DNA of 64,000 nt from Solirubrobacterales bacterium (GCA_036496625.1 DASXKW010000011.1:2372-66371); one strand, 5' to 3'. Counted from the stretch's first letter, positions 9,977-36,953 are shown. A program made the numbers and translations. The notes: generated from the sequence alone by a model not told the origin.

Positions 9977-11239
9977 TCATCCGTAGGGCTTGTAGATCAT
10001 CCGCTGCCCGAGCAGTCCGGTGACGGTGGCGAAGCCGTAGCCGCGGGCACGCAGCGTGTCGATGATCGCCGGCAGCGCCGCGAGGGTGCCTCTGCGATCG
10101 CCGCCGCCGTCGTGCATGAGGATGATCGAGCCCGCCTGGGCGGCGCCGACGACGCGGCTGTAGACGGCGGCGCTGCCCGGAGTCGTCCAGTCGGCCGGAT
10201 CGACGTCCCAGGTGATCGTCCGCAGCCCGTTCTCAGCGGCGGCTGCGATCACCGATGAGTCGACGGCGCCGCCCGGCGGCCGCAGCAGGCAGGGCCTGAA
10301 GTGGGTGATCGACTCGATCAGCGTGGTGACCGGGGCGATGTCCGCGTAGCCCGGGAATTCGGTGTGGTGCATCGTGTGGTTGCCGATCTCGTTGCCTTCG
10401 AGGAGGATCTGGCGCATCGTCGATTCGCGGCCCGCCATCTCCTGGCCGATCTCGAAGAAGGTGCCGGGAACGTGCTTTTCGCGCAGGACCTGGAGGAAGC
10501 CCGCCGTGTATTCGCTCGGCCCGTCGTCGAAGGTCAGGGCGACGGCGTTGCGGTCGCGCGGCCCGTTCGTGTCGAGGCCGGAGGTGCCCCCGGTGCAGCC
10601 GACGGCACGCGCCGGCCGCAGGCGGAAGGTCCGGGCGCCCTGGGCCGGCAGCCTCGTTTCGCAGCTTGAAGCCTCCTTCGCGCCACAGCCTCCGAGGCTG
10701 GCCACCACCCCCCATTGGTAGCGGTGCGGCGCCAGTCCTGCGTCGTCTGGCAGCAGCGCCAGGACCAGCTTCTGCGCGCTCGGCCGCTTCACGGTGACCG
10801 CGAGCGTTTCCTTGCCGATCAGCTCTCCCGCCGCGTTGAGGACCTCGAGACCGATGCGTCGCCGTGCGTTCGTTGTGCCGCCGAGACAGAGCCGTCGCAG
10901 CGCCTTGGTCCCGGTCGGCCGCATCGCCAGGCAGAGGTAGCGTGAGCCCTGCGCCCGCGGCAGCCGGTCGAGCTTGGCGAGCGCAACCGGGCCCGAGGTC
11001 CGCAGACTGAGGATCAGGCGCCTCCCCCTCTGGGAGAGTCGTGCGCGGACCGGCGCGGGTGGCGTCGCCGCAGCGCCGGGCGGAGCCACGGAGGCCGCTC
11101 CCAGCGCCGTGCCGGCGAGGGCAGCGATGCAGATGATCTTGCGAGATCTGGCGATTGAGATGATCCGGCTGATCGATTGGAAAGGCCTGCGCATTATTGC
11201 GCCTGCATCCCCGATCCTCGTCTCGATCGATCCAGACAA
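9977..11239 (-). CDS. Secreted polysaccharide deacetylase (NodB domain)
   Basis: Signal-like segment IICIAALAGTALGAASVA; LTFDDGP...GNHTMHH motifs; start may be Met at 11194. Confidence 0.8.
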   Translation of the reverse strand: MSGSIETRIGDAGAIMRRPFQSISRIISIARSRKIICIAALAGTALGAASVAPPGAAATPPAPVRARLSQRGRRLILSLRTSGPVALAKLDRLPRAQGSRYLCLAMRPTGTKALRRLCLGGTTNARRRIGLEVLNAAGELIGKETLAVTVKRPSAQKLVLALLPDDAGLAPHRYQWGVVASLGGCGAKEASSCETRLPAQGARTFRLRPARAVGCTGGTSGLDTNGPRDRNAVALTFDDGPSEYTAGFLQVLREKHVPGTFFEIGQEMAGRESTMRQILLEGNEIGNHTMHHTEFPGYADIAPVTTLIESITHFRPCLLRPPGGAVDSSVIAAAAENGLRTITWDVDPADWTTPGSAAVYSRVVGAAQAGSIILMHDGGGDRRGTLAALPAIIDTLRARGYGFATVTGLLGQRMIYKPYG

Positions 11240-12613: not shown

Positions 12614-14321
<1,708 letters not shown>

Positions 14322-14471
14322 GATCGCCTCCTCGGTTCCTGGTTCGCTCGGGTCGCCAGCCGCTGCCGGCAAGCGATCCCGGCTCCATCGCTCGGACACG
14401 TTTAGCTCCACGCGCCCGAGATCTCAACAGGGTTGCCCGATCGGCCTGCCGGGGCGGCCGGGCAGCGTCGG

Positions 14472-15404
14472 TCATCGCCGCCTCTCCTTGGCTTCCCGAT
14501 CGTCGCCACCGAGCCAGTCGACCGCCCGGCTCGGGTCGCGAGCGTCGAGGAAGATCGGCGCGAAGGGGCCTTCGCCCTGCAGATCATCGAGCAGGCAGAT
14601 CGAGATTCCGACCTCGGGCGTGCGTGAGAACCGCGGGTCGCTGCGCAGCAAGGCAAGCACGGTGGAGCGGCGCCGCTCGAGCGCCGCCCTGTGGCCGCCC
14701 GTCAGCACGCAGTGGACGGGAGGGAAGAACGGGTAGAGCGAGCGCCACAGCGGTTCGCCATCGGAGCCACCGAGCCGGTACAGCTCCGCGTAGCGCGCCA
14801 GCTCAGCGGCGAGCCGGTCCACGGTGAGCGTGGCGCGATCGATCTCCAAGAAACGCTGCTCGATCGCGACCCCGTCCTCCTCGATCCGCAGGTAGGTGAA
14901 GACGGCGTCGGCGACCAGCCGGCGGCGACGCCGGCCGCGCCCGCGCGAGAGGGGATGGGAAACCTCGTGGCGCCAGGCGAGGGGGCCGAACTCGTCCCCG
15001 CGCTCGCGCGCTGCCTGCATGAAGCAGATCGCCGCGTCGTTGACCGCGAGCGTGTGGGCCTGGAGCGGCCCGGCCGCCTCCTCGGCGCCGATCAGGCGCG
15101 GCGCGTCGTCCAGCACGCCGGCCTCTCGCGCCAGGCTCGCCCCCAGCTCGGTCACATGCCAGAGGCGCCGATGGGAGCGCGGCGACTGCACATAGCCGGC
15201 GAGACCGGCCCGCCCAAGCCGCGCCAGCAGCCTCTGCACCCAGCGCTCGCCCCGGCCCGGGAGGTGGATGGCACGGACCTGGCCGGTGGAAAGGACGCGG
15301 TGCTGAGCGAGCGAGGCGGTTACCTCGATTCCAGCCTCGGTGAGAGCGCCCTGGACGCTCGCGGGCTTGCTCACTGCTTTGGCCTCGTTCCGCCGGGCAC
15401 CCAA
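14472..15404 (-). CDS. Replication-relaxation family protein
   Basis: wHTH-like N-terminus (LAQHRVLSTGQVRAIH...) and overall resemblance to the replication-relaxation family. Alternative GTG start at 15374 forms a GTGA overlap with the upstream stop. Confidence 0.65.
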   Translation of the reverse strand: MGARRNEAKAVSKPASVQGALTEAGIEVTASLAQHRVLSTGQVRAIHLPGRGERWVQRLLARLGRAGLAGYVQSPRSHRRLWHVTELGASLAREAGVLDDAPRLIGAEEAAGPLQAHTLAVNDAAICFMQAARERGDEFGPLAWRHEVSHPLSRGRGRRRRRLVADAVFTYLRIEEDGVAIEQRFLEIDRATLTVDRLAAELARYAELYRLGGSDGEPLWRSLYPFFPPVHCVLTGGHRAALERRRSTVLALLRSDPRFSRTPEVGISICLLDDLQGEGPFAPIFLDARDPSRAVDWLGGDDREAKERRR

Positions 15405-18013
15405 AGCGTCGGCTGGTCGGTCGACGCGCCCTGGTCGTCGGGGTTCGCCGATGCGGGAGCCTCCGACACCACCCCCTCGGTCTTAGCCGCCTTCCGGCGT
15501 CGCTTCGTCAGCTCGGCCAGGATGCGCTCGTCGAGCGTCTCCAGGTGCCGGGTCACCTCGGCGGCCTCGGTCTGTGCCACGGCGCCGCCCAGCGGCACTC
15601 CGCTCCCGGCAGCGGGTAGCTCGGCGACGTCCTCGACCCTGATCCCCTCCAGCGCGAAGGGCTCGCTCAGCTCGCCGCGGTCGGTGACCTGGGCGATGAA
15701 ATGAAAGCGCCGCAGGCGGGTCAGCGCCGCCGGGTCGGGCTTGCCCGCCCACTCCTTGGTCACGAGGGCTGCCGCGCGGAAGTTCATCGTCGTGGCGAGC
15801 AGGTGCGAGCGGTTGGTGGCGAGCGCGGTCAGCGTCTGCGGGTTCAGCCGCTCGGGGTTCTGGTTTAGCACGATGGCCCGCAGGCCGAACTTCGCGCTCT
15901 GCTCCAGCAGCGCCGCGAGGTTGCCCGAGGCGACGCTGTCGTAGGTCTGCACCTCGTCGAGGAAGACCCAGAAGGGCTTGCGCTCCGACCCGCGCCCCTT
16001 CCCCGCGTGCAGCAGGTCGAAGAGCAGCAGATTGGCGACCAACCGCTCATGGACATCGCTCGATCCGGGATGGGCGAGGACGATCAAGCCCTCGTCCATC
16101 GCCTCGCGCGCCCGGTAGGTGCTTTGGCTCTGGCCGAGCAGTGCCGTGATCGGGGTTGAGCCCGAGAGGCGGTCGACCAGGTTGGTGATCGGCGTGATCG
16201 CCTCCTCGGAGAGGCGCGGGAAGCGCTCGGTCCAGAACGCCTGCGATGAGGAGGGCAGGAAGGGCAGCGCAGCCTCGCGCCACCGCTCGCTGGAGAGCAG
16301 CGGCAGCAGCTGAAAGATCGTCGGGCAGAGCTCGGGCGGCAGGACGCGGGCAACGTGGGCCAGCGCCCGCGTCGCCTGCGTGGTCAGGTTGATCGCCCGC
16401 GTCGACTGATCGCCCCACTGCAGGGTCGAGGCGAAGGCGCCGACGATCGCCGCCACGCGCGACTCGACTTCGGCAGCGTTCTTGCCGCGAAGCTCGAAGA
16501 GGTTCCAGCCCGGCAGCTCCCAGGCACCGCTTTCGCTGACGTCGATCTCGACCACCCGCCGCGCCACCTCGGGCTCGGTCAGGTAGGGCTTGATCCGCGT
16601 GAGCGCGTCGCCGTGGGGATCGAGAAAGAGGCCGCCGCTGCCCGAGCGAACCAGGTGGACGAACTGGGCGATCGCCGTCTCGGTCTTGCCGTAGCGGGAG
16701 CGGCCGGCGATGTAGGTGAAGAAGGTGTCGGCGGTGCGGGCGCCGACGATGCGCTTGCCCCGCTCGCCGCTGACCTTGCCCAGCGGGATCAGGTCGGCTC
16801 GGCCTTCCTCGAAGGTCGGCAGCGAGGGCGCCGCCGGCAGCAGCGTGCCCGAGCGCACGACGTTGGTCGAGACGCAGTGGGCGCTCGGCGGCTTCAGGAA
16901 CCCCGCGACCTCACGGGCGGTGAGGACCGAGCGCTTCGCGGGGCGGTGGAGGCCGGTGGCGAGGCGGCGGTCGAAGCCGCGCCGCCGAGTTGGGAAGTCC
17001 GAGCCGAAGAAGACGACCTCGCCCGCCCCGATGCCCGAGGGGCGCAGCCAATTGTGAGAGCGCATTGGCTCGAAGGCGGCGAGCAGGAGCTGCATCGCAA
17101 GCTTCGCGCGCGGCTTCTCGGCCGCTTCGGCGCAGAGCAGGACCTGTGCCTCATACAGCGGTTCGGAACCGCGCAGCTTTGCGTCGAGCGCCTGGCCGAC
17201 CATGCGTCGCTCCAAGAGCGCCGTCGGGTCGCTCTTGCCGCGTCGCGGCCGTTCGTTGTTGAGAATCTCCGTCAGGCTGCGCTTCTCGCCGTGCAGACGC
17301 TTGGCCTGTCGTTTCAACTTTGCGCGCAGGCGAGCGCGGCGCAGTCCGGCGGTCGACAGCAGGTCGACGCAGACGCTGACCTGCTCGCCGTGCTCTGCCC
17401 TCAGCGAGGCCATCGCCGCGGCGAAGGGCTGGAGCGGATCGGGATCGAGAGCGAGCTGGACCAGCGGTTCGATGCTCGGGCGGGCGAGGACCAGCTCGAT
17501 CCGCAGCCGGACGGCCTGCTCCGGCTGCGCAGGCAGCACCTCGGCGACTTCGCGCAGCTCGACACCCTCGTAGTCGCGCAGCGCCGTCCGCAGCAGCTCG
17601 TGCGAGCGGGCTGGGACTTCGAGCAGATAGACGAGGCGCCCTTTCCGGTCGTTGGTCAGCCGCACGCGCAGGGCGCGGGCGCGGCGGTCGAACCAGCCGC
17701 GCAAGCTGCGATCGCTGCGCGCCAGCTCGGCGGCGAAGCGCTGCACCGCCTCGGCTTTCGGGTCGAACTCATCGGCCGGCACCACGGCCACGGCGGTTCG
17801 CGTCGCCAGCGTGCGGCGCGTGGCGCGGAAGCGCTGTGGAGCCAGCGCGGAGGCGATAGCGATGGCGCCGAGAGCGAGGGGCGCGACCGAGGCCGCCGAG
17901 GCCACCAGGTGAGCGGGATGGATGCTCGATGCGGCATGCACGATCACGGCGATCACGAGGAGGGCGAACAGCGCCAACATCGGCCTCGGATCGTGCGGAT
18001 CGACGCCCATCAT
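15371..18013 (-). CDS. TraD/VirD4-like type IV coupling protein (FtsK/HerA-superfamily P-loop ATPase)
   Basis: TM N-terminus (MLALFALLVIAVIV), Walker A GRSRYGKTE, Walker B FWVFLDEVQTY; trimmed to Met-Met at 18013. Confidence 0.75.
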   Translation of the reverse strand: MMGVDPHDPRPMLALFALLVIAVIVHAASSIHPAHLVASAASVAPLALGAIAIASALAPQRFRATRRTLATRTAVAVVPADEFDPKAEAVQRFAAELARSDRSLRGWFDRRARALRVRLTNDRKGRLVYLLEVPARSHELLRTALRDYEGVELREVAEVLPAQPEQAVRLRIELVLARPSIEPLVQLALDPDPLQPFAAAMASLRAEHGEQVSVCVDLLSTAGLRRARLRAKLKRQAKRLHGEKRSLTEILNNERPRRGKSDPTALLERRMVGQALDAKLRGSEPLYEAQVLLCAEAAEKPRAKLAMQLLLAAFEPMRSHNWLRPSGIGAGEVVFFGSDFPTRRRGFDRRLATGLHRPAKRSVLTAREVAGFLKPPSAHCVSTNVVRSGTLLPAAPSLPTFEEGRADLIPLGKVSGERGKRIVGARTADTFFTYIAGRSRYGKTETAIAQFVHLVRSGSGGLFLDPHGDALTRIKPYLTEPEVARRVVEIDVSESGAWELPGWNLFELRGKNAAEVESRVAAIVGAFASTLQWGDQSTRAINLTTQATRALAHVARVLPPELCPTIFQLLPLLSSERWREAALPFLPSSSQAFWTERFPRLSEEAITPITNLVDRLSGSTPITALLGQSQSTYRAREAMDEGLIVLAHPGSSDVHERLVANLLLFDLLHAGKGRGSERKPFWVFLDEVQTYDSVASGNLAALLEQSAKFGLRAIVLNQNPERLNPQTLTALATNRSHLLATTMNFRAAALVTKEWAGKPDPAALTRLRRFHFIAQVTDRGELSEPFALEGIRVEDVAELPAAGSGVPLGGAVAQTEAAEVTRHLETLDERILAELTKRRRKAAKTEGVVSEAPASANPDDQGASTDQPTLWVPGGTRPKQ

Positions 18014-18210
18014 GCACCGACCCTTGGGTGACGTAGGTATGTCGGCAAAACGGGGAGGCCGCAATCGCCGCTGCCATGCGGGAGAGCGCGCATCTCGGCG
18101 CTTGTCGCCCCGACCCGAGGACCGACCGCAGGGCCGACCCCACGCCCGACCTGTCGCTCGACCGCTGGCCGGTTGCCGCTGCTCGCTCTGTTCGCTGCGT
18201 TCTCCACCAC

Positions 18211-18309
18211 TACTACAGAGCAGGCAGCAGCGAAAGTGGACAGTGATTCGCGGCAAGTTTTAGATTCGGCTCTCATATAACTACGGAGCGGCGAGCAGCG
18301 AAAGTGGAC
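18211..18309. repeat. Two ~30-nt imperfect direct repeats (core AGCAGCGAAAGTGGAC at 18226-18241 and 18294-18309)
   Basis: Read directly; they lie in the non-coding gap upstream of the coupling-ATPase gene and flank an AT-rich stretch. Confidence 0.6.
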
Positions 18310-19144: not shown

Positions 19145-19280
19145 CGCGAACGCCGCCACCGCGCTCCTGCGGTTTCTCGAGGGCCGAGGCAGGTGTCGAG
19201 GTGCCCAACCAGCGGGCACCTCGTACCTCCCTGTGGCCTGCGCCTCGGCCCTCGAAAAACCGCAGGAGCGGCTCGCACGG

Positions 19281-19517
19281 TCACTTCGGCTTCGCCTCCT
19301 TGAGGACGTAGCCGCGCGGGCGCTTCTTGGCTTGGCGCACCTTCCCGTCCTTCGTCAGTCGCGCGAGGCAGTTGGCGACGGCGCCGGCCGAGCGCTCGAT
19401 GCCTTTGGCGATCGCGGTGGCGGTTAGCGGGCCGTCGTCCTTGTGCGCGGCCAGATAGGAGAGCACGAGGCCGTCCAGCTCTCCGGGGCGCAGGCGCTTC
19501 GCCTTCGCCGGGCTCAC
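19281..19517 (-). CDS. Small winged-helix DNA-binding protein
   Basis: LVLSYLAAHKDDGPLTATAIAKGIERSAGAVANCLARLTKDGKV resembles MarR/wHTH; 4-nt overlap with upstream gene. Confidence 0.6.
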   Translation of the reverse strand: MSPAKAKRLRPGELDGLVLSYLAAHKDDGPLTATAIAKGIERSAGAVANCLARLTKDGKVRQAKKRPRGYVLKEAKPK

Positions 19518-19927
19518 GCTCGCTCACCCTCTCGCTCGTCGAGGTCGACGAGCACTTCCTCGCAGGTGTCGAGGCCGAGCTGGAAGCGGGCGTCGGTCTC
19601 GGCGTCGGCTTTCTTGGACTCGCGCTCGGTGCCCGACTCCAAGAGCACCTTTTCGGCCTCGCCGTGGAGGCGCTTCAGCACTTCCATCAGGTCGTGGGTC
19701 GGCATCGTCAGCTCGAATGCCTCGCGGTTGTCCTTCGGCTGCCAGCCGATGTCGGCCAGCAGGCGGAAGTCTTCGCCGAACTCGATGCCGAGCCGCTCGG
19801 CGGTGGCGAAGTCCTCGTTCTCCTCCAGCGCGATCCAGACGTCGCCGATCGCGCCGAGGTGGTTGCGGACCAGCTCGTAGAGACCGTCGCGCTGATCGCG
19901 GTCGATCGTCGCGGTGATGCTGGGCAT
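19514..19927 (-). CDS. Acidic hypothetical protein
   Basis: D/E-rich, no recognisable domain; ATG 19927 preceded by AAAGGGGGG. Confidence 0.5.
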   Translation of the reverse strand: MPSITATIDRDQRDGLYELVRNHLGAIGDVWIALEENEDFATAERLGIEFGEDFRLLADIGWQPKDNREAFELTMPTHDLMEVLKRLHGEAEKVLLESGTERESKKADAETDARFQLGLDTCEEVLVDLDEREGERA

Positions 19928-20020
19928 GGCGCCCCCCTTTCGGTAGGGCACCGAAGAGCCGCCTCAGATCAGGGCCGTCGCTCTACCCGAGCACCGAAGT
20001 GCTCTGGGAGAATCGGTCGC

Positions 20021-20045
20021 GCATCGAAGGATGGTTCTTCGGTGC
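20021..20045. promoter_or_regulatory. Palindromic candidate operator GCATCGAAG-N7-CTTCGGTGC
   Basis: Lies in the divergent intergenic region; additional GCACCGAAG copies at 19948-19956 and 19991-19999. Confidence 0.4.
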
Positions 20046-20249
20046 CAGGCCCCGGGGCGTTAGTGCGCCGCCGGGGCCACTATGTCTTGGTCGGCGATGG
20101 ACGTTAGCTCTGCTGCGCGGAGGAAGCGAGCCGATTGCTGTGGATAGGTGCGGATCGCCTGAAGATCGATTCTTCGGTATCGCGTCGGTCGTCAATCGGG
20201 ACATATCCTGTCCTGAATAACCGACTGAGACGACCTGAAGGGGCAGGGG

Positions 20250-22979
20250 ATGACAAGCCCGAAGCAGCATTCCGCCAAGGAGCCACAGCCATACGCGCAG
20301 TTCTGGCGCTGCGATCTGCAATGCCATTCTCCACTCGAGCCCGAGTTCAAGCCCGGCGTTTCCCGCGACGACAAAGCAGCAGTCACAGGGGCTGCGAAAC
20401 GGTATGTCGACGCCGCGGTGGAGCGCGGCTTGGACGCAATCGCGGTTACTGACCACAACTCGGTTGCGTTCCTTAAAGAGCTCATGGCCGCTGCCACTGG
20501 ACGACTTGTCATCTTCCCGGGCATCGAGGTTTCGGCTGCTGACGGCTACCACTTGCTCGTGATATTCGAGATCGGCACTCGCCCCGCGGTGATCCAGGAA
20601 TTCCTTGCCAAGATTGGGATCAAAGCGGGCGAGGAGCGCGGCCCCCAAGGCGAGCCTGTATGCGCAGAGGACGGTTGGAGTTGGGGCAAGATTCTTGACG
20701 AGGTTGCGCGTCGCAGCGATGCGATCGCGATCGCTCCGCATGTACGAAGCGGCAAGGGCATTCTCAAGAGCAGCATTGCCGGCGAGGTGAAGGCTCGCAA
20801 CTGGAAGCACCCTCACCTCTACGCGATCGAGGACAATCGCAAGTCGTTGATCCCGAAAGGGAGCATGACCGACAAGGTCATGCTGAATGAACTCGACGAC
20901 TACCGCAGGGTGCGAGTTCCCGCGCGGGTTTGGGGGTCTGACTGCAAGTCCTATGACGGCTTGGGTTCTGAATGCACCTTCATCAAGATGACTGAGCCCA
21001 GCATCGAAGGCCTGCGTCAGGCATTCCTGGATCCCGGCTCGCGAATCCGCCATCCAGAGGATTTCCAGCTACACGCCCGTGATCGAATCCTGCGCGTGGG
21101 CTGGCAGGCTGGCTTTCTCTCTGAGCAGGAGGTGGTCTTCTCGGAACAGCTCTCCTGTCTAATCGGCGGAAAGGGAACGGGAAAGTCGACCGTGATCGAG
21201 TCCGTCCGATTTGCTCTCGGCAAGGAGCACGTTGACCAACCACTGGCAAGTCAGTACGAGGGCCTGCTTGAGAGCGCGCTCCCGCGTGGCACCAAGATCA
21301 CCCTGGAAGTCGCCCGGCGCGACGGCTCTCGCTATACGGTCTCCCGAACCGAGCCGTATGAGGCGGAGGTCAGCGACGAGACCGGTGTCGCTGTGGATAT
21401 TCCCGCTATCGACACCATCGATCCGACGATTCTCAGTCAGGGGGAGATCCTCTCGATCGCTCGTCGACCGACTTCCCACCTCGCACTCCTTGATGCTTTC
21501 CTCGAGGATGAGTTGTCAGCGCTGCAAGACACGCAAGAGAAGATAGGACGCGACCTCGCACGCAACCGCTCCCAGTTCGTGGAGGCGATTGAGGAACGTG
21601 AGAGCCTGGCGGAGGACCGAAACGAAATCATTCGCCTAAAGGAGGCGAAGAAGGCCTACGACAAACGGGGTCTGAGTGCTCGCACTGAGCAGCGTCGTGC
21701 CCTCGACCGCGAGGAACGCCTCGTCAAAGAGGCGATCGAAGCGGCGTCCGAAGCTGAGGCGGAGCTCGCTGGGCTCGAAGAGGAGGTGGAGTTGCCTTAC
21801 CTCCTGGTTGATAGGGACCTGCCGCACCATGAGCTTTGGAAGCCGCTACACAAACGCTGGCTGAAAGCCGTGAAAGTAGTTGCTGACCTTCGAACCAAAG
21901 GCGCCACCCTCTATGAGGGACTGGCCGAGGAACTAAGACAGATCACGGCAAGCGAGTCGGAGTGGGTCAGATCGATTGCCCGCCAGCGCGAGGAGGTATC
22001 CGCGGTCTACCGCGAACTGCAAGAGGAGTATCCGGATCTAGACCTCGCTCAGTTCGACAGGCTCGACCGCGCGCTTGAGGAGCTGCAGTCACGGATTGAC
22101 GATGGTGCTGGCATCGAGGCGCAGATCTCCGAGCTGTCGGGCAAGCGGCGCAAACTGCTTAAGCGGTTGCGAGAGAACCGCCGAGATCAGTTCCTCTTGC
22201 GAAACGAGTTGGCTGCGGGTCTAAACGAGGCTTTGATTGGCAGCGTCCGCATCGACGTCGAGTTTCTCGGGGACCGCGACAGCGCCCTGGAGCATCTGCT
22301 GGAGCTGAAGAGCGGTGTGCGTCGCGAGGCGTTGAAGCGGATCGTCGAGCACGACGACTTCACCCCGGAGCGTCTGGGAGAGACGCTGGGCAAAGGGGCC
22401 GAGGCGACTGTCGCAACCTTTGGCATTACCGAGGGGCAGGCGTCGACCCTCATCAGCAAGACGAGCATCGCACATAGACTTCAGCTCGAAGAGCTCCTCA
22501 TTCCTGAGCGCGTCGTAATTAACTTCAACACCTCACGACGCGGCGATGATCCTCGCTACCGCAACCTTTTGAATGTCAGTGTTGGCCAGAAGGCGACCTG
22601 CGTACTTCTCATTCTTCTGGCTCAAGACGGTCCACCTTTGATCGTCGATCAGCCGGAGGACGATCTCGACAATCGCTTCGTCTACGACGACATCGTCGAG
22701 CGTCTCCGCGACGTCAAGGACAAGAGGCAACTAATCCTGTCGACCCACAATGCGAACATTCCCGTGTTGGGCGACGCCGAGTTGATCGCCGTCATGGACA
22801 CCGAGGAGCGCAGCGGCAGAACCGCTGGTGTTGTCTCCGACCTCGGCTCTATCGATTCCGCCTCCATTCGCCGCTCGGTTACTCACATCCTTGAGGGAGG
22901 CCGCCGCGCCTTCCGCCGACGCCAGGAAAAGTATGGGGCCCCCGGACTCGACGAAGACGAGCAGCTGGGCAAGGAATGA
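20250..22979 (+). CDS. PHP-domain phosphoesterase fused to ABC/SMC-type coiled-coil ATPase
   Basis: PHP motifs (CDLQCHSP, IAVTDHNS, GIEVSA, IAPH). Walker A GGKGTGKST, Q-loop SQGE, long coiled coil, signature-like SVGQKA, Walker B LIVDQPEDDLD, STHN. Lower G+C than flanks. Confidence 0.85.
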   Translation: MTSPKQHSAKEPQPYAQFWRCDLQCHSPLEPEFKPGVSRDDKAAVTGAAKRYVDAAVERGLDAIAVTDHNSVAFLKELMAAATGRLVIFPGIEVSAADGYHLLVIFEIGTRPAVIQEFLAKIGIKAGEERGPQGEPVCAEDGWSWGKILDEVARRSDAIAIAPHVRSGKGILKSSIAGEVKARNWKHPHLYAIEDNRKSLIPKGSMTDKVMLNELDDYRRVRVPARVWGSDCKSYDGLGSECTFIKMTEPSIEGLRQAFLDPGSRIRHPEDFQLHARDRILRVGWQAGFLSEQEVVFSEQLSCLIGGKGTGKSTVIESVRFALGKEHVDQPLASQYEGLLESALPRGTKITLEVARRDGSRYTVSRTEPYEAEVSDETGVAVDIPAIDTIDPTILSQGEILSIARRPTSHLALLDAFLEDELSALQDTQEKIGRDLARNRSQFVEAIEERESLAEDRNEIIRLKEAKKAYDKRGLSARTEQRRALDREERLVKEAIEAASEAEAELAGLEEEVELPYLLVDRDLPHHELWKPLHKRWLKAVKVVADLRTKGATLYEGLAEELRQITASESEWVRSIARQREEVSAVYRELQEEYPDLDLAQFDRLDRALEELQSRIDDGAGIEAQISELSGKRRKLLKRLRENRRDQFLLRNELAAGLNEALIGSVRIDVEFLGDRDSALEHLLELKSGVRREALKRIVEHDDFTPERLGETLGKGAEATVATFGITEGQASTLISKTSIAHRLQLEELLIPERVVINFNTSRRGDDPRYRNLLNVSVGQKATCVLLILLAQDGPPLIVDQPEDDLDNRFVYDDIVERLRDVKDKRQLILSTHNANIPVLGDAELIAVMDTEERSGRTAGVVSDLGSIDSASIRRSVTHILEGGRRAFRRRQEKYGAPGLDEDEQLGKE

Positions 22980-23130
22980 GACAGGCCGTCGGTCCGGTGG
23001 CTGGTTAATAGGAGGTTTGCAGCTGGCCACACGATGTGGCTCAAGCCGTGTGATTTGTGACGCCCAGGTGTTGGAGACCGGAATTAGCCGCGAAGGTGAC
23101 TCTGGCTCGTCAAATTACCGGCGAATCGAC

Positions 23131-23165
23131 TAAAGAAAGAGACCGCCACGAAAACCGGAGGGCGG
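23131..23165 (-). terminator. Possible intrinsic terminator downstream of the STAND NTPase gene
   Basis: On the minus strand: CCGCC-N13-GGCGG followed by TCTCTTTCTTT; short stem. Confidence 0.3.
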
Positions 23166-23195
23166 AGCGAACTAATCGACCCCTTTGGTCGATGC

Positions 23196-25487
23196 TTAGC
23201 CGAGCCGCTCGAACATCAGCGCGATATCGCGGTCGCTGTCGCCGTAATCGGACTCGAGCTCCTCTGCGGAATCCCTCGCGAAGTGTTGACGGTCAGGTTC
23301 GTAGTCGTCGTCCGGATCCTCCTCGGAGAGCAATTCCCGGGCCTCCTCGAATCTCTCGTTGTCCACCGAGGAGTCCAGGCTCATGTAGTGAAATTCGAGG
23401 GTATCGACCTCGTTTGGACCGTCGAGCCAAGCGACTGGGTCGTCGAGGACCTCTTCGAGATATTCCCCGAAGCCTCTGCAGATCTCCGTCCATTCGGCAT
23501 CGCTGAAAAGGTCTGGCACAGCGTCATGGAGCTCGTCAACGCAGCCCCACCTCTCGGGCCCGGAATCCATCTGCTCGACTACCGCTCGAACGATTTCGCC
23601 ACTAGCTGTCAACTCGAAGGCACCGAGTTTCGACAAGCCGGGAAGAAGTCTTGGCGTTGCCGTGTCGACCGGGGCTGAGGTATTGCCGACATCGGACAGC
23701 CATTTCCGACCGATGTCGATCCAGACCTCCACATGATCCGCCAGCTCGGGCGTCTCATTCACATATTTCAAGACGCGCTGGAGCCGACTCTGCAGGACCG
23801 GATGATCATCCCACGTCCACGGAGCGTCCATCAATTCGAAGATCAGGGAGATACCAGATCCTTCGACGACTGCCGACTCAAGCGTTCTACCGAATGCCTC
23901 GCTGAAGGCTCTTGCGAGCCGCGGGGGTGGCGATCCGTCGGTCGGGCTCAGCGCGTTCCACAGCCAGACGACCTGCTCAAAGAAGTGCGCCCCCCGGATC
24001 GCCTGTTCGGCATCGGCGGGACTCGCGAGTAGGTAGTTGCGAAGGAAATCGACAAGGGAAGGGTTTATGAAGGAGAGGTGAGAGTCTGCGCCACCATCAG
24101 AACGGAGGAAGGAGTCATCCAGGACCTCGAGCGAACGGATGAACTGCCTGCCGGCGACGGGTAGCCCTTGCGCCTTGCAGGCACTCTCGAAGGCCGCTTC
24201 GACATCCCGGTCGGATGCCCTCCGGGGTAGCCCCAGCATGGAGGTCAGCATGGCTCGTTCGGCGGCGCCGAGCCCCTGCTCGAACGCATGGCTCCAAAGC
24301 TGCTGGGGATTGTTCAGGACCGAGAGGCAGTAGGACGCGTAATCCTCTTTCTCCTCATCCGAGGGTCGATGGCCTGACCATCCGGTGATCCACTCGATCA
24401 ACCGTGGGTTGTAGCCCTCGTGATCTATGACCTTCAGATAGTTGCGGTCTGCTCGCAGAGAAAGCCGCGCTGTGGCGTCGATCGCATCAGAGAAGTAGAT
24501 GTGGTTATAGAAGATCCGCGCCTTCTCCTGGCGGTTATAGCTGTCGATCGTCAGAAGGAACTTGCGGTCCTCGTTGGCATCCCGGTCCAAAGCCTCCGAT
24601 AGTTGCGTCGCCTGGCGCAGGATGTACTCGCGCGTAGCCAGGACGAATCGTCTCCTTGGCGTGCGCATCACCTTCTTCATCAACTTCAGCAGCTCAGCGT
24701 CGTAATGGCGCGATTCAAAGAGCGCAGTCTGGCCGAGGAAGTCGTCGAAATAGAAGAGCTGCGACTCGTCCTCGACTTCCAACAGCTTCCACGCATCGTC
24801 GAGCCCGCCGGGCGCGATCTCGTAGGGCTGAAAACCCTCCTCCAGGGCGTCTAGCATCAGAAGACGCGCGAGCGTGGTCTTGCCGACTCCTGGTGGTCCT
24901 GCGATGACACAGAGCTTCTGCTGGCGGAGAATCTGTCTCGCGTTGTGAAACGCCTCGGTTTCCACGACTCGCGGCAGCGCTTGCCGCGATTCTTCCAGTA
25001 GAGCGCGGCTCCTTTGGAAGGCGGCCGCGTTCAGTAGTTGCTGCAGCGGACCAGCTCCTGCCAACCAAAGCTTCACATGACGGCTTTCCACGCGGGTGTG
25101 GTTCCGCAGTAGACGGCGCAGATCGTTTTCCCCGTACACATTGTCCACGGAATCGATCCATTGCCCAAGGATTGATGCGATCTCGTCCCTCTGTCGATGG
25201 TTCAGGCGTAGCGAGGTTGCGAACCGGTAAGACCCAAAGCTCGCCCCTGCCGCCTTGAGCTTGGCTGCCTCCACCTTCGCCACTGTCCGCAGCTTCGCGT
25301 AGGTCCCATCGCGGTAATGCTTGCATTGGACCACATGCTCGCCTCCTTCGTCATCGACTGCGAGGACATCGATCCCTCCATCCCGTCCACGGGTTCCGGC
25401 TCTGAACGGGCGCCCAAACTCAGCCCGCATCAGGTCGGCAACAAGCTCCTCAAAGTCGAGGTCGGAAAGTTCGTCGAACTTAGCCAT
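23196..25487 (-). CDS. Mrr-like PD-(D/E)xK nuclease domain + STAND-type P-loop NTPase + helical C-terminal region
   Basis: GGIDVLAV...HVVQCKHY (Mrr_cat-like), Walker A GPPGVGKTT, Walker B LFYFDDFLG, REYILRQA and YNPRLIEW blocks, acidic tail; ATG 25487 preferred over TTG 25511. Confidence 0.85.
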   Translation of the reverse strand: MAKFDELSDLDFEELVADLMRAEFGRPFRAGTRGRDGGIDVLAVDDEGGEHVVQCKHYRDGTYAKLRTVAKVEAAKLKAAGASFGSYRFATSLRLNHRQRDEIASILGQWIDSVDNVYGENDLRRLLRNHTRVESRHVKLWLAGAGPLQQLLNAAAFQRSRALLEESRQALPRVVETEAFHNARQILRQQKLCVIAGPPGVGKTTLARLLMLDALEEGFQPYEIAPGGLDDAWKLLEVEDESQLFYFDDFLGQTALFESRHYDAELLKLMKKVMRTPRRRFVLATREYILRQATQLSEALDRDANEDRKFLLTIDSYNRQEKARIFYNHIYFSDAIDATARLSLRADRNYLKVIDHEGYNPRLIEWITGWSGHRPSDEEKEDYASYCLSVLNNPQQLWSHAFEQGLGAAERAMLTSMLGLPRRASDRDVEAAFESACKAQGLPVAGRQFIRSLEVLDDSFLRSDGGADSHLSFINPSLVDFLRNYLLASPADAEQAIRGAHFFEQVVWLWNALSPTDGSPPPRLARAFSEAFGRTLESAVVEGSGISLIFELMDAPWTWDDHPVLQSRLQRVLKYVNETPELADHVEVWIDIGRKWLSDVGNTSAPVDTATPRLLPGLSKLGAFELTASGEIVRAVVEQMDSGPERWGCVDELHDAVPDLFSDAEWTEICRGFGEYLEEVLDDPVAWLDGPNEVDTLEFHYMSLDSSVDNERFEEARELLSEEDPDDDYEPDRQHFARDSAEELESDYGDSDRDIALMFERLG

Positions 25488-25683
25488 CAGCCCCGATTCT
25501 CGGCAATCCAAGAAGAAAAAGCGTCTTCAGTCGACGGAGGGGTCGCAACTACGACGCGGCAAGCAATCCTGGGCGGGGTCAATCTTGCGATCCCACCGCC
25601 GGAGTCCCTCTTTTGCTGCCGAGGAGCGTGCGGCCCAAAAAGGGGCCAGATCCGGTAGCAGCACGCCCTGCACCCCGCCTCAC

Positions 25684-25750
25684 CCCGGATCTCAATCCGG
25701 CGTCCTTTGACGACTCCTGCCTGTCGCTTCGGCCGTTCCTTCAAATCGGC
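25684..25750. repeat. Degenerate copy of the integrase-tail/att block
   Basis: CGGATCTCAATCCGGCGTCCTTTGACGACTCCTGCCTGTCGCTTCGG aligns with blocks at 27752-27804 and 36888-36940. Confidence 0.5.
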
Positions 25751-25795
25751 GGTGTCGGTTCAGGCCGGTCCCGCGATTGTTCACCGGATGAGAGG

Positions 25796-26318: not shown

Positions 26319-26990
26319 CTACGCCGCAGCCGCTACCGGTTCCAGGTTCCTGGCAAGTTGGGCCTCGAGATCCAGCGCTTCGTTGATCGCCGTCCTGTCG
26401 AAGCTCGGATAGAGGCCGTAGAGCTTTGCCTTGTCGACTCCGCGCTGCGCAATCGCGGCGAGGGCCTCCGTCTCCAGACGAGTGCGAAGAAGGTGGGGGG
26501 CGCCAGCCAACTTGCTGGCGATGATTCGCAGCCGGGGTCGAGGCGCGAACAGGTCCGGTCCTCGAATCCCCGCCTCGGACTCGAACGGCTCGATCAGATC
26601 CAGGTTGTGGAGAGGCAGTTGCCCTCCAACCGGCACGCTGTCCTCTGCCGGTCCGACGTAGACCTCTCCTTCGCGACTCACCCGCACCATGTAACCGTCC
26701 TCCTCGTCCCAAAGATCGAGGTCAATGCGATCGAGCTCGGCGAGAGCATCTCGGACTACCGACATCGGGGTCGGGGGTATCTCGTCGCCCTCGGGCGTCG
26801 GCTTTGGGTGGCGCAGCCAGTAGATGGCGCGCAGGCCCATCAAGTCCGTGTACGACCAGAGCTTCACCCGAGTCGGCGACACGCTGGGGACGAGCCATTC
26901 CTTGCGTGCCCAGTGGTGGACCGTCGACTTCGGCACTCCGGAGAGCGCTGCTGCCCGCTCGGCGGTATATGCGCCACGGCGATCGTTCAT
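26319..26990 (-). CDS. MerR-like HTH + DUF433-like protein (putative antitoxin/regulator)
   Basis: YTAERAAALSGVPKSTVHHWARKEW HTH; C-terminal RIIASKLAGAPHLLRTRLETEALAAI... resembles DUF433; Met at 26990. Confidence 0.55.
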   Translation of the reverse strand: MNDRRGAYTAERAAALSGVPKSTVHHWARKEWLVPSVSPTRVKLWSYTDLMGLRAIYWLRHPKPTPEGDEIPPTPMSVVRDALAELDRIDLDLWDEEDGYMVRVSREGEVYVGPAEDSVPVGGQLPLHNLDLIEPFESEAGIRGPDLFAPRPRLRIIASKLAGAPHLLRTRLETEALAAIAQRGVDKAKLYGLYPSFDRTAINEALDLEAQLARNLEPVAAAA

Positions 26991-27079: not shown

Positions 27080-27517
27080 TTACATCGCCCCTGTGCTGAG
27101 GCGCTCGACGGCAGCGAGAACTCGCTCGAACTGGCCTTCGGCAAGCAAGTCGATCGGCTTCTCTCCGCCCAGGTCGCGGCTGCGGCCGTGAACCCAGATG
27201 TCGGTGCCCTCGGCGGTGTAGACATCGCGCAGCCGCTCCAAGATGTAGTGGAGCTCCAGCAGCCGGTCTTTCGCTTGCCCTTGGGGCCGGTGGGTGCCGG
27301 CGGCCCAGTGCTGGACCTGGCGCGTCTTGACGCCAGTGATCTTCGCCAGCTCGGCGTTGGTCAAGACGCCGCCTCGGAGATCGTCGACGAGGTGGGCATA
27401 GAGGCCAATGGGCGGGGGTGCTTGCGTTGTTTGCATTGACATCCGCATCATGCCGGAAGACAGCGCATCAAACAACGCCCCAAATGACATGGTCGTCAGA
27501 CTGGCGTTCATCGACAC
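27080..27517 (-). CDS. Xre/MbcA/ParS-type antitoxin (HTH + DUF2384 toxin-binding domain), no cognate RES toxin adjacent
   Basis: LTNAELAKITGVKTRQVQHWAAG HTH; C-terminal WVHGRSRDLGGEKPIDLLAEGQFERVLAAVERL typical of DUF2384. Confidence 0.65.
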   Translation of the reverse strand: MSMNASLTTMSFGALFDALSSGMMRMSMQTTQAPPPIGLYAHLVDDLRGGVLTNAELAKITGVKTRQVQHWAAGTHRPQGQAKDRLLELHYILERLRDVYTAEGTDIWVHGRSRDLGGEKPIDLLAEGQFERVLAAVERLSTGAM

Positions 27518-27540: not shown

Positions 27541-27732
27541 ATGAAATGGCCTGAACATCCGAAGCCTCATCACCAAGCCCGGAGCGGCGACGCGAATGCC
27601 ACCCGGCGGGCACCCGTCGGCCTGTCCGTGATTGCACTTGACGAGGAAGAGGCCCGCCGCTTCCTCAAGGCGCTTGAGCGGCCCTGCGGCCAAACGGTCG
27701 CGCGGCTCGCAGACCTGCGTCACCGGGCGTAG
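27541..27732 (+). pseudogene. Possible fragment of a DUF1778 (TacA-like) antitoxin
   Basis: Only the C-terminal IALDEEEARRFLKALERP pattern is recognisable; no GNAT toxin downstream. Confidence 0.3.
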
Positions 27733-28262
27733 CCGGAAAGATCCTGCTCAACCCCGAATCTCAATCCGGTGTCCTTTGAGGACTCCTGCCCCGTCGCTCC
27801 CGCTCGTTGAAGTGCCTGGATTTGGGCGAGTTTCAGGCTCCTTTTCTGGCGCTGTCTTGTCCTCCTGACCTCCGGTTGATTGGGCACTGGTGCCCATTGG
27901 GGACCACGCCTCGTCGCCAGCAGCCCTCCCATCCGGGTCTTCGGCTGCATCCCGGTCACGTCGGTGTAGACGCGAAGAGTCATGCGCGGGTCGCGGTGCC
28001 CCATCTGCGCGGCGGTGATCGCAGGATGCTCCCCAAGCTCTGCGCGCAGGGCCGCGTAGGTTCGGCGGAGCGAGTGGAACGTGAGCCCTTCCGGCAGCGG
28101 CGGTCGATCCTCGGCGCCGAGCAGCTCGTTTGCCTTCGTGATCGCCGCGTAGAGGATTTTCGTGCGGACGCTGTTGCGCTCACGCGGCTTCTCGCGGATG
28201 CGACCGGCGAATACGAAGTCGTCCGGCAGCTCGCCAGCCGGATCGAAGGCCGAGATTAGGCA
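27720..28262 (-). pseudogene. Tyrosine recombinase (phage integrase) C-terminal fragment
   Basis: My translation of the minus strand gives ...LTFHSLRRTYAALRAELGEHPAITAAQMGHRDPRMTLRVYTDV (HxLRxT and GH...Y boxes). N-terminal two-thirds absent. The tail reads through the att-like block. Confidence 0.75.
27727..27820. repeat. att-like block B containing exact tRNA-Asp 3' 15-mer (27790-27804)
   Basis: CCCGTCGCTCCCGCT identical to 12675-12689; block homologous to 36865-36953. Confidence 0.8.
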
Positions 28263-28350: not shown

Positions 28351-28755
28351 TCAGCGCAGTAGCTGCACCTTGCACGTCAGGCCGCGGACTTTGGCGGCCT
28401 CTCGGTCGCCGGTCAGGACCAGACTGACCTCTGGGTGGATCTCTGCCGTCGCCAAGATCATGGCGTCCGGCATTCGCAGCGATTTGCGACGAGCGCGGAG
28501 GTGGGCAGCCGTGTCCGCCACATCCATATCGACGGGTAGAACTTCTGAGATCAGGTCGCTGAAGAATCCCTTGACTTGGCGCCCGTCGTGGTGCCCAAGC
28601 TTTGCGCCGGTCAGAACCTCGGCATAGGTCACGACTGAGACGAGCAGTCGTTCTTTGCCAAGGAGATCGCGGATCGCCTTGTCTGCGGCATCGTGAAGGG
28701 CGTCGTTGCGGTCGAGAAAGCCGACGACCGCGTCGGAGTCGAGGACTACCGCCAC
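28351..28755 (-). CDS. vapC: PIN-domain toxin VapC
   Basis: VVLDSDAVVGFL... N-terminal Asp, conserved acidic residues, ~130 aa; overlaps vapB by 10 nt. Confidence 0.85.
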   Translation of the reverse strand: MAVVLDSDAVVGFLDRNDALHDAADKAIRDLLGKERLLVSVVTYAEVLTGAKLGHHDGRQVKGFFSDLISEVLPVDMDVADTAAHLRARRKSLRMPDAMILATAEIHPEVSLVLTGDREAAKVRGLTCKVQLLR

Positions 28756-28985
28756 TCCTCGCGCAGCCCTTCCACGCGCTCGCGCAGGTCGCCGCCAGTG
28801 TCGAGGCAGCCGGAGTAGCGATCGATCAGCTCGTCGATCCGCGTCAAGACGACCCGGCCCGCTCCCTCGGCTTCCACCCTCAACATGTCGCCAGGCTCGA
28901 ACCCCGCCTTGCGAAATGGGGACGCCGGTATCGTCACTTGGTGCTTGCTGGAGACCCGGGTCTGGTTCTTTACCTTCTCAGTCAT
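28746..28985 (-). CDS. vapB: AbrB/SpoVT-type antitoxin VapB
   Basis: VSSKHQVTIPASPFRKAGFEPGDMLRVE swapped-hairpin motif. Confidence 0.8.
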   Translation of the reverse strand: MTEKVKNQTRVSSKHQVTIPASPFRKAGFEPGDMLRVEAEGAGRVVLTRIDELIDRYSGCLDTGGDLRERVEGLREEWR

Positions 28986-29105
28986 AGGTAAAGACTAGCC
29001 GATGCCAACCGATGCCGCAACGAATCTCGACTCGCCGCGACGGCTTCGCGTCGAGCTGATGGACCGAGACGATCGCATGACGCCTGCCTGGCTCACGCCG
29101 ACCCC

Positions 29106-36864: not shown

Positions 36865-36953
36865 GCGTAGTCGGAAGTCGCGCTCAGCCTCGAATTTCAA
36901 TCCGGTGTCCTTGACGGACTCCTGCCCCGTCGCTCCCGCTCCTTGAAGTGCCT
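36865..36953. repeat. att-like block C containing exact tRNA-Asp 3' 15-mer (36926-36940)
   Basis: Identical 15-mer; flanks homologous to block B on both sides; preceded by a fragment homologous to the 3' end of the 27080-27517 antitoxin gene. Confidence 0.8.

Follow-up and report, generated by a model that had tools for sequence, protein, structure and literature searches.

Two large genes lying between positions 19,281 and 25,750 of a 64,000-nucleotide stretch of DNA from a Solirubrobacterales bacterium (GCA_036496625.1 DASXKW010000011.1:2372-66371; below, "the window", with positions counted from its first letter) probably constitute two independent single-gene cassettes of the defence type that share, tail to tail, the hypervariable cargo slot of an integrative element. 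The element resides at a tRNA-Asp gene and encodes a serine recombinase and a Replic_Relax protein. Gene A codes for a TrlF-family PHP-ABC ATPase and gene B for an Mrr nuclease fused to an nSTAND3 NTPase; both genes are accessory and mobile, occur independently of each other, and retain intact motifs. Their arrangement is ordinary stacking of defence genes in a mobile-element hotspot and not a new two-gene system. An earlier note on this DNA had presented the genes as one cassette, possibly a sensor/effector unit, and as the best candidate for an uncharacterised conflict system. Neither part of this proposal survives: A occurs without B in three related contigs (L001, L002, L085) and B without A in a fourth (L167), while A passes the NCBIfam cut-off for TrlF and B falls into the PADLOC candidate family PDC-S73. 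A defence activity is inferred for both proteins, as are the ligands, nuclease substrates and activation steps suggested below from homology, architecture and fold. The genes, their domains and the stretches that separate them are located as follows:

20163–23042, plus strand: gene A cassette as delimited by comparison, consisting of 87 bp upstream, the open reading frame (ORF) and 63 bp with a hairpin
20250–22979, plus strand: gene A, 909 amino acids, fusion of a PHP phosphoesterase and an SMC/Rad50-like ABC ATPase
20298–21059, plus strand: PHP domain of gene A, approximately residues 17–270
21084–22934, plus strand: ABC ATPase head of gene A, interrupted at residues 397–661 by an inserted coiled coil of about 260 residues
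22980–23195: spacer of 216 bp, with the cassette junction at about 23042/23043, just past the small hairpin after gene A
23196–25487, minus strand: gene B, 763 amino acids, Mrr nuclease, nSTAND3 NTPase and helical putative sensor
23199–24023, minus strand: C-terminal helical putative sensor of gene B, acidic disordered tail and conserved terminal helix, according to the AlphaFold2 (AF2) model
24492–24965, minus strand: nSTAND3 P-loop NTPase domain of gene B (Pfam PF20720)
25206–25475, minus strand: Mrr-type PD-(D/E)xK nuclease domain of gene B (Pfam Mrr_cat)

ORF calling in the window places the two genes in convergent orientation on either side of the spacer at 22980–23195, so that the distance of about 216 bp given in the earlier note is exact. 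The spacer does not form an exceptional fold (z = -1.7) and contains no consensus terminator. The note had also described both genes as lower in G+C than their surroundings and rich in A/T-ending codons, which is borne out: G+C is 0.59–0.62 across 20–26 kb vs. 0.68–0.72 on both sides, with values of 0.602 for gene A and 0.599 for gene B, and the G+C content at third codon positions (GC3) is 0.714 and 0.719, respectively, compared to 0.875–0.914 in the genes of the element backbone. The shared low G+C was considered as a sign of joint origin and rejected; homologues of A and homologues of B in other genomes also have a G+C below that of their own surrounding loci, and low G+C is therefore a property of each family separately.

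Whether the two genes belong together was examined by comparison. Relatives of gene A were assembled into 167 loci with approximately 2.0 Mb of flanking sequence, of which 160 are distant (29–35% identity; drawn from a 185,579-species genome set and from Joint Genome Institute (JGI) metagenomes) and 7 belong to the close clade of gene A. The metagenome contigs L001, L002 and L085 encode a protein 98–99% identical to gene A and lack gene B. They follow the window at 95–96% DNA identity from position 17094 or 19260 to 22988 or 23042, and homology breaks 9–63 bp past the stop codon of gene A (at 23042 in L001 and L002, at 22988 in L085), where other genes follow. The reciprocal situation is found in L167, a 208-kb contig, in which a related element carries a B homologue (56% identity) and no gene A. 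This element shares with the window the recombinase (82% nucleotide identity), Replic_Relax, the large backbone protein, both helix-turn-helix (HTH) genes, the 79-amino-acid and 136-amino-acid genes and the Xre antitoxin. The B homologue of L167 stops at 10271, and from 10276 the contig is homologous to the window from 20162 downwards, i.e., a 5-bp join connects the B homologue directly to the backbone. This junction implies that positions 20163–23195 of the window correspond to an indel of about 3 kb carrying gene A.

The cargo slot, which has the regulatory genes on one side and the att-side end of the element on the other, is thus found in three states: A and B (window and L165), A with other genes (L001, L002 and L085), and B alone (L167). 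Apart from the window, the A–B junction is present only in L165, which is 97.8% identical at the nucleotide level over window positions 22749–25520 and for this reason belongs to the same element lineage. In L001, three small genes and a nucleotidyltransferase gene (NTP_transf_2, with weak matches to PDC-S09 and PDC-M05A) follow gene A (L001:3929-10202), and beyond an att-like repeat lies a type I restriction-modification system (HsdM, HsdS), so that the slot carries another set of defence genes here. L002 resembles L001, with four small genes (one of them a nucleotidyltransferase gene), an att-like repeat, and type I restriction-modification after gene A.

Co-occurrence of homologues across genomes, which the earlier note had named as a check, speaks against a pair. 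A tblastn search with gene B through the flanks of all 167 A-relative loci returned none but L165, and no A relative is present in six independent contexts of B homologues (47–83% identity; L004, L166, L167, L171, L172 and L173). These six contexts have no neighbour in common, and the same is true for four contexts of the close A clade (50–74% identity), which all lie on mobile elements or beside defence genes, with neighbours such as GmrSD, PD-Lambda-1, an integrase, or a relaxase together with a type IV coupling protein. An obligate two-gene sensor/effector system formed by A and B would account for their adjacency, for their equal G+C and GC3, and for the repetition of the junction in L165. 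However, convergent orientation makes co-transcription impossible, each gene is found alone in closely related elements (A in three contigs of 95–96% identity, B in L167), and outside the lineage of the window the pair occurs in 0 of the 166 other A loci and 0 of the 6 independent B loci. With composition being a trait of each family on its own, such a system is extremely improbable.

One further observation could be taken as support for an obligate partnership: in L004, a B homologue of 83% identity (L004:10001-12292) lies 133 bp downstream of a co-directional gene for a 750-amino-acid SMC-like ATPase (L004:7616-9868). This ATPase is not similar to gene A at any detectable level and instead matches the LmuB (Lamassu) profiles of PADLOC. 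As a candidate partner of B it was set aside, since it is missing from the five other independent B contexts; it probably reflects a defence-island neighbourhood, and a Lamassu-like variant comprising this ATPase and the B homologue is conceivable.

The assignment of gene A to the TrlF family is based on a full-length match to the NCBIfam model NF045780 (TrlF family AAA-like ATPase), with 484.3 bits at a cut-off of 350 and residues 15–896 aligned to model positions 2–944. The NCBIfam model Spaf_1101 gives 220 bits, below its cut-off of 475. In Pfam, a weak PHP match (22 bits, residues 49–104) is accompanied by AAA_23, SMC_N and AAA_21, and the best match in PADLOC is Ppl (170 bits, E 1.5e-50), which is partial (residues 52–658). 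The view of the earlier note that each gene joins an NTPase to a predicted nucleic-acid-attacking domain agrees with Pfam (PHP and ABC in A, Mrr_cat and nSTAND3 in B), and in PADLOC, which it recommended, both genes match profiles of defence systems (Ppl for A, E 1.5e-50; PDC-S73 for B, E 2e-116). Plasmid-borne homologues of gene A are annotated as "TrlF family AAA-like ATPase".

The ATPase part of gene A is well preserved. Walker A (GGKGTGKST, residues 306–314), the signature motif (SVGQK, 777–781), Walker B (DQPEDD, 800–805) and the H-loop (H833) can all be recognised, and their residues are nearly all invariant in 111 homologues, with G307, T314 and D804 conserved in at least 90%. In the PHP domain, H69, E93, H101, H164 and D231 are invariant in the same 111 homologues; H26 is present in the window and is not invariant among the homologues. 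The AF2 model (predicted local distance difference test, pLDDT, 91; predicted template modelling score, pTM, 0.80) shows an alpha/beta domain at the N-terminus, an ABC head that the coiled coil divides in two, and a small helical insertion. Its top Foldseek matches are the heads of SMC, MukB, JetC, Rad50 and RecN, and also LmuB. A search of PDB with the family profile of gene A matched the PHP phosphoesterases 9etk and 3e0f and RNase AM (7ug9), whereas a PDB sequence search found no solved relative of either gene A or gene B as a whole, only generic SMC heads, PHP phosphoesterases and P-loops. Compared to its 98–99% identical copies, gene A shows ratios of synonymous to nonsynonymous changes of 45:18 and 54:13, and is under purifying selection.

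Head and coiled coil give gene A the fold of Mre11-Rad50 / SbcCD, of JetC (Wadjet) and of LmuB (Lamassu), and it resembles Mre11-Rad50 / SbcCD in the coupling of an ATPase to a metal-dependent phosphoesterase. In contrast to these systems, in which the Mre11/SbcD or Toprim subunit is separate, gene A carries its nuclease in cis, as a fused PHP domain; its coiled coil, of approximately 260 residues, is short, and no kleisin or accessory subunits are encoded nearby. A different function for gene A might be suspected from this resemblance, namely that of a Rad50/SbcC-like DNA-processing factor that serves replication, transfer or repair of the element rather than defence. The fold of the head, which is nearest to SMC, Rad50 and RecN, and the residence of close homologues on integrative or conjugative elements, in one case with a TrwC relaxase on one side and a coupling protein on the other, would be in line with such a role. 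It is nevertheless quite unlikely, because L167 has the same backbone without gene A. Moreover, gene A is located in the variable cargo slot and not in the conserved backbone, its nearest named relatives are Ppl, which is anti-phage, and the TrlF family, and its neighbours elsewhere include PD-Lambda-1, GmrSD-like genes and type I restriction-modification.

Like gene A, Ppl is encoded by one gene and joins a PHP domain at the N-terminus to an ABC/SMC-like ATPase; Gao et al. are said to have described it in 2020 as a single-gene anti-phage PHP-ATPase. The lack of a conserved neighbour of gene A across the contexts of its close clade is consistent with the same single-gene status. A review describes Ppl as a 3'-5' single-stranded DNA exonuclease that is inhibited by NTPs on its PHP and NTPase domains and is activated by phage-induced nucleotide depletion and 3'-OH DNA ends (PMC12904381).

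The second named relative, TrlF of Photorhabdus, shares with gene A the combination of PHP and ABC ATPase, and most members of the family have a companion. Of the 164 loci collected first, 144 have a TrlG-like gene directly downstream of the A relative. This gene is co-directional, encodes approximately 410 amino acids, follows at a median offset of 12 bp, and contains the Pfam domains SLFN_AlbA_2 and HATPase_c_4 (examples are L005:10001-13809 and L018:10001-13897 from the set L005–L164). The contigs with these loci are assigned to many phyla. Screening of the TrlG-like partner against PADLOC v2 gave nothing beyond weak matches to Argonaute-associated models. In Photorhabdus laumondii, the temperature restriction locus (TRL) consists of trlR, trlF and trlG, with TrlG carrying AlbA_2 and HATPase_c_4 (PMC7554251); since the conserved downstream partner has these two domains, it can be equated with TrlG. 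The bacterium can grow at 36°C once the operon is deleted or trlG carries point mutations, and no mutation in trlF was recovered (PMC7554251). A literature search found no paper on systems that combine PHP-ABC and Schlafen proteins. The linkage across phyla suggests that TrlF-TrlG is a widespread two-gene conflict system.

Gene A differs from this arrangement in having neither TrlG downstream nor TrlR in its operon. A TrlG-like gene is lacking in the window, where the best tblastn match has an E of 0.023, and likewise in L001–L003, L085 and L168–L170, which represent close-clade contexts at 50–99% identity. Relatives of gene A show a clear gap in identity: about 23 proteins share 48–98% with it, and the next ones 36% or less, which separates the TrlG-linked majority from the clade of gene A. 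This places gene A in a "solo" clade of TrlF proteins that have no TrlG partner. Elsewhere, members of this clade have an integrase next to them, are flanked by a TrwC relaxase and a coupling protein, or lie near GmrSD-like, PD-Lambda-1 and NsnA-like genes. As to a small trlR regulator gene, none lies in the operon of gene A; a nearby gene for an 80-amino-acid winged-helix protein (19281–19523) lies on the opposite strand. This gene was rejected as an equivalent of TrlR, because it is part of the backbone and also present in L167, where gene A is absent.

The frequency of TrlG in the family (144 of 164 loci), its absence from the window, and the mapping of the Photorhabdus phenotype to TrlG could also indicate that gene A is a decaying, inactive remnant of a TrlF-TrlG system after loss of TrlG. 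Several observations make this very unlikely. TrlG is missing from all examined contexts of the clade (48% identity or more), including L001, L002 and L085 from the lineage of the window and four independent contexts at 50–74% identity. Furthermore, the members of the clade are full-length, the residues of the ATPase and the conserved residues of the PHP site are invariant, and synonymous changes are in excess.

Gene B has the layout of an effector, a STAND NTPase and a helical sensor, as known from Avs/AVAST proteins. The ORF called for it (23196–25511, minus strand) encodes 771 amino acids from a TTG codon; however, its homologues have 763 amino acids and begin with MAKFDEL or MARFDDL, so that the ATG at 25487 is the real start. 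The protein matches the PADLOC family PDC-S73 with 388.5 bits (E 2.2e-116, residues 4–487), and Pfam detects Mrr_cat (33.8 bits, residues 6–76) and nSTAND3 PF20720 (153 bits, residues 176–333). In the Mrr domain, E14, D41, Q55 and K57 (numbered from 25490) are invariant in 21 homologues and either invariant or conserved in at least 90% in a set of 100. Walker A (G198–T205, with four invariant positions) and Walker B (D249–D250) of the NTPase are likewise invariant or nearly so in 100 homologues. A 98% identical copy differs from gene B by 28 synonymous and 16 nonsynonymous codon changes, and gene B, too, is under purifying selection.

In its combination of Mrr and nSTAND3 in a single gene, as the "S" class implies, gene B conforms to PDC-S73, and it stands alone in six independent contexts with differing neighbours. 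It differs from PDC-S73 in that the C-terminal third of the profile is unmatched, which points to a divergent sensor in gene B. The AF2 model (pLDDT 87) shows this C-terminal region (approximately residues 490–725) as all-helical, mostly with pLDDT above 90, whereas its sequence is poorly conserved. Among 1.84 billion proteins, only 19 representative clusters are related to the C-terminal 275 residues, and all of these are, without exception, C-termini of the same family as gene B or shorter fragments. Such a narrow distribution fits a fast-evolving, family-specific sensor.

Foldseek relates gene B to SAMD9, Avs3, Avs5, Avs4 and Apaf-1, each with a probability of 1.0 and at 9–13% identity; the Avs structures matched in this way are Avs3 (8dgc), Avs4 (8dgf) and Avs5 (9jap and 9nc9), at 10–13% identity. 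Avs4 contains an Mrr-like nuclease. In comparison to Avs3 and Avs4, gene B is about half as large, and its sensor comprises only approximately 270 residues without a recognisable tetratricopeptide repeat. The NTPase of Avs5 belongs to Pfam nSTAND3 PF20720, as does that of gene B (bioRxiv 10.1101/2025.07.08.663546). The small genes that precede B in different loci show no homology among themselves. The idea that gene B has a conserved small partner on its upstream side was rejected, since the 167-amino-acid gene in this position has no homologue upstream of other B genes. For the family itself, a literature search on "PDC-S73" found no paper.

By homology and fold, gene A most likely acts like Ppl or like a fused Mre11-Rad50, with the PHP domain in the place of Mre11. 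DNA, probably its ends, would be bound through ATP-driven dimerisation of the heads together with the short coiled coil, and this engagement would gate the PHP domain, which would then degrade nucleic acid. By architecture and fold, gene B most likely functions as an Avs-type protein: the fast-evolving helical C-terminus would bind a phage-derived ligand, recognition of the ligand would trigger NTP-dependent oligomerisation via nSTAND3, and the clustered N-terminal Mrr domains would cut DNA, leading to abortive infection.

The two mechanisms might intersect. Independent genes could act in a non-obligate synergy, in which DNA ends made by the Mrr domain of B feed an end-dependent PHP exonuclease in A. 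The 3'-OH DNA ends that Ppl reportedly needs for its activation (PMC12904381) would fit this idea, as would the predicted end-producing nuclease of B and the co-residence of both genes in this lineage. However, pairing is nowhere enriched and gene A is not Ppl proper, which leaves a synergy of this kind unlikely. For gene A itself, the suggestion that the solo clade of TrlF-like PHP-SMC proteins has dispensed with TrlG, a partner otherwise near-universal in the family, and comprises self-sufficient single-gene defence nucleases, in this element perhaps with DNA ends supplied by gene B, is a tentative one and less likely than not.

Several observations weigh against the interpretation of A and B as two independent defence genes, or against parts of it. 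Gene A scores only 216 bits against the NCBIfam model Ppl_antiphage (NF042955), with homology limited to residues 17–653; as this is far under the equivalog cut-off of 1000, gene A represents a sister family and not Ppl. Its PHP metal site looks reduced when set against the complete metal-binding set of an active PHP enzyme (HxH, H, E, H, H, DxH): judged by alignment position only, Q24 occupies the place of the first histidine of the HxH motif, and apparently no histidine follows D231, i.e., the final histidine of D-x-H is missing in the alignment. With the first HxH histidine and apparently the final D-x-H histidine lost, nuclease activity of gene A is not assured. Given this reduced site and the distinctness of gene A from Ppl, the Ppl-like step is the least secure part of the mechanism proposed above. 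For gene B, Avs models are absent among the 11 PADLOC families that match at E <= 0.1. PADLOC v2 does include Avs models. Retention of the A–B junction in L165 moreover indicates that the pair is stably inherited within the lineage. The sole functional data on a TrlF locus concern growth arrest in Photorhabdus, which maps to TrlG and not to TrlF (PMC7554251), and PDC-S73 is one of 145 PADLOC candidates that are predictions from guilt-by-embedding.

The element that hosts the slot is delimited by the following features:

12614–12688, plus strand: tRNA-Asp (ARAGORN), one end of the element
12633–14411, minus strand: large serine recombinase adjoining tRNA-Asp (Pfam Resolvase, Recombinase, Zn_ribbon_recom)
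15371–18256: backbone protein of 961 amino acids, matching the PADLOC "mad8" P-loop model at 41 bits (residues 506–819)
19281–19951, minus strand: backbone genes beside the cargo slot, for the 80-amino-acid winged-helix protein and a 145-amino-acid protein, outside both cassettes
25521–25782: insertion of 262 bp relative to L165, containing a degenerate att-like copy; the blastn alignment of L165 is split at 25520/25783

Tests of the genomic setting upheld most of what the earlier note had described. It had recognised an integrated element at a tRNA, and indeed the tRNA-Asp gene at 12614–12688 is accompanied by a recombinase, which at this tRNA site is of the serine and not of the tyrosine type. 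About 55 bp at the 3' end of the recombinase ORF are shared with the tRNA-Asp gene, which is encoded on the other strand, and in L167 the end of the recombinase abuts a homologue of the MazE-like gene found at 28746–28994 of the window. Beyond the recombinase, Pfam identifies Replic_Relax, the 961-amino-acid protein is encoded, and Pfam further identifies HTH regulators and an Xre/MbcA/ParS-type antitoxin. The 961-amino-acid protein, which has no Pfam match and a counterpart of 885 amino acids in L167, is possibly a transfer or replication ATPase of the element. The two backbone genes at 19281–19951 recur in L167 without gene A and in L001 without gene B.

Toxin–antitoxin modules, which the note had placed next to the two genes, are confirmed only in part. 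The Xre-type antitoxin gene is present at 27080–27517; however, no RES toxin gene follows it in the window, unlike in L167, where one does (L167:2381-3291). The antitoxin is apparently an orphan in the window, and the position of the toxin (the region of 26319–26990) is taken by a 223-amino-acid gene with a weak MerR-like match and a 167-amino-acid gene.

The degenerate att remnant proposed in the note is also present, as a copy at approximately 25,682–25,740. An att-like unit of about 75 bp, with the 3' end of tRNA-Asp (CCCGTCGCTCCCGC) as its terminus, lies downstream of the element at approximately 27,730–27,804 and 36,870–36,940, and the degenerate copy is recognised by a 40-bp match of 92.5% to 27751–27790 together with its alignment to the repeats of the tRNA-Asp 3' end. 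Sequence of this kind also lies at 12675–12689 of the window, and the repeat recurs in related contigs (L001:6753-6824 and L167:2017-2106). The repeats suggest tandem or successive integrations at tRNA-Asp, although the genes from 27.8 to 36.9 kb are mostly of the housekeeping type (sigma factors, CMD, RPE65, PadR). The 262-bp insertion with the degenerate copy is placed between gene B and the 167-amino-acid gene upstream of it, and is absent from L165, which is otherwise 95–98% identical. A defence island at 27.8–37 kb was set aside because of the housekeeping content there.

The region does not stand up as a candidate for a new two-gene conflict system, and it deserves no priority on that basis. 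Instead, it provides a natural example of an actinobacterial integrative element whose cargo slot swaps single-gene defence cassettes. It also contributes intact, selectively maintained members of two predicted defence families, the solo TrlF clade and PDC-S73. The linkage of TrlF and TrlG in 144 of 164 loci from many phyla makes the "temperature restriction locus" of Photorhabdus look like a widespread conflict system. If the solo TrlF clade does consist of defence nucleases, an anti-phage role would be implied for the widespread TrlF-TrlG pair as well.

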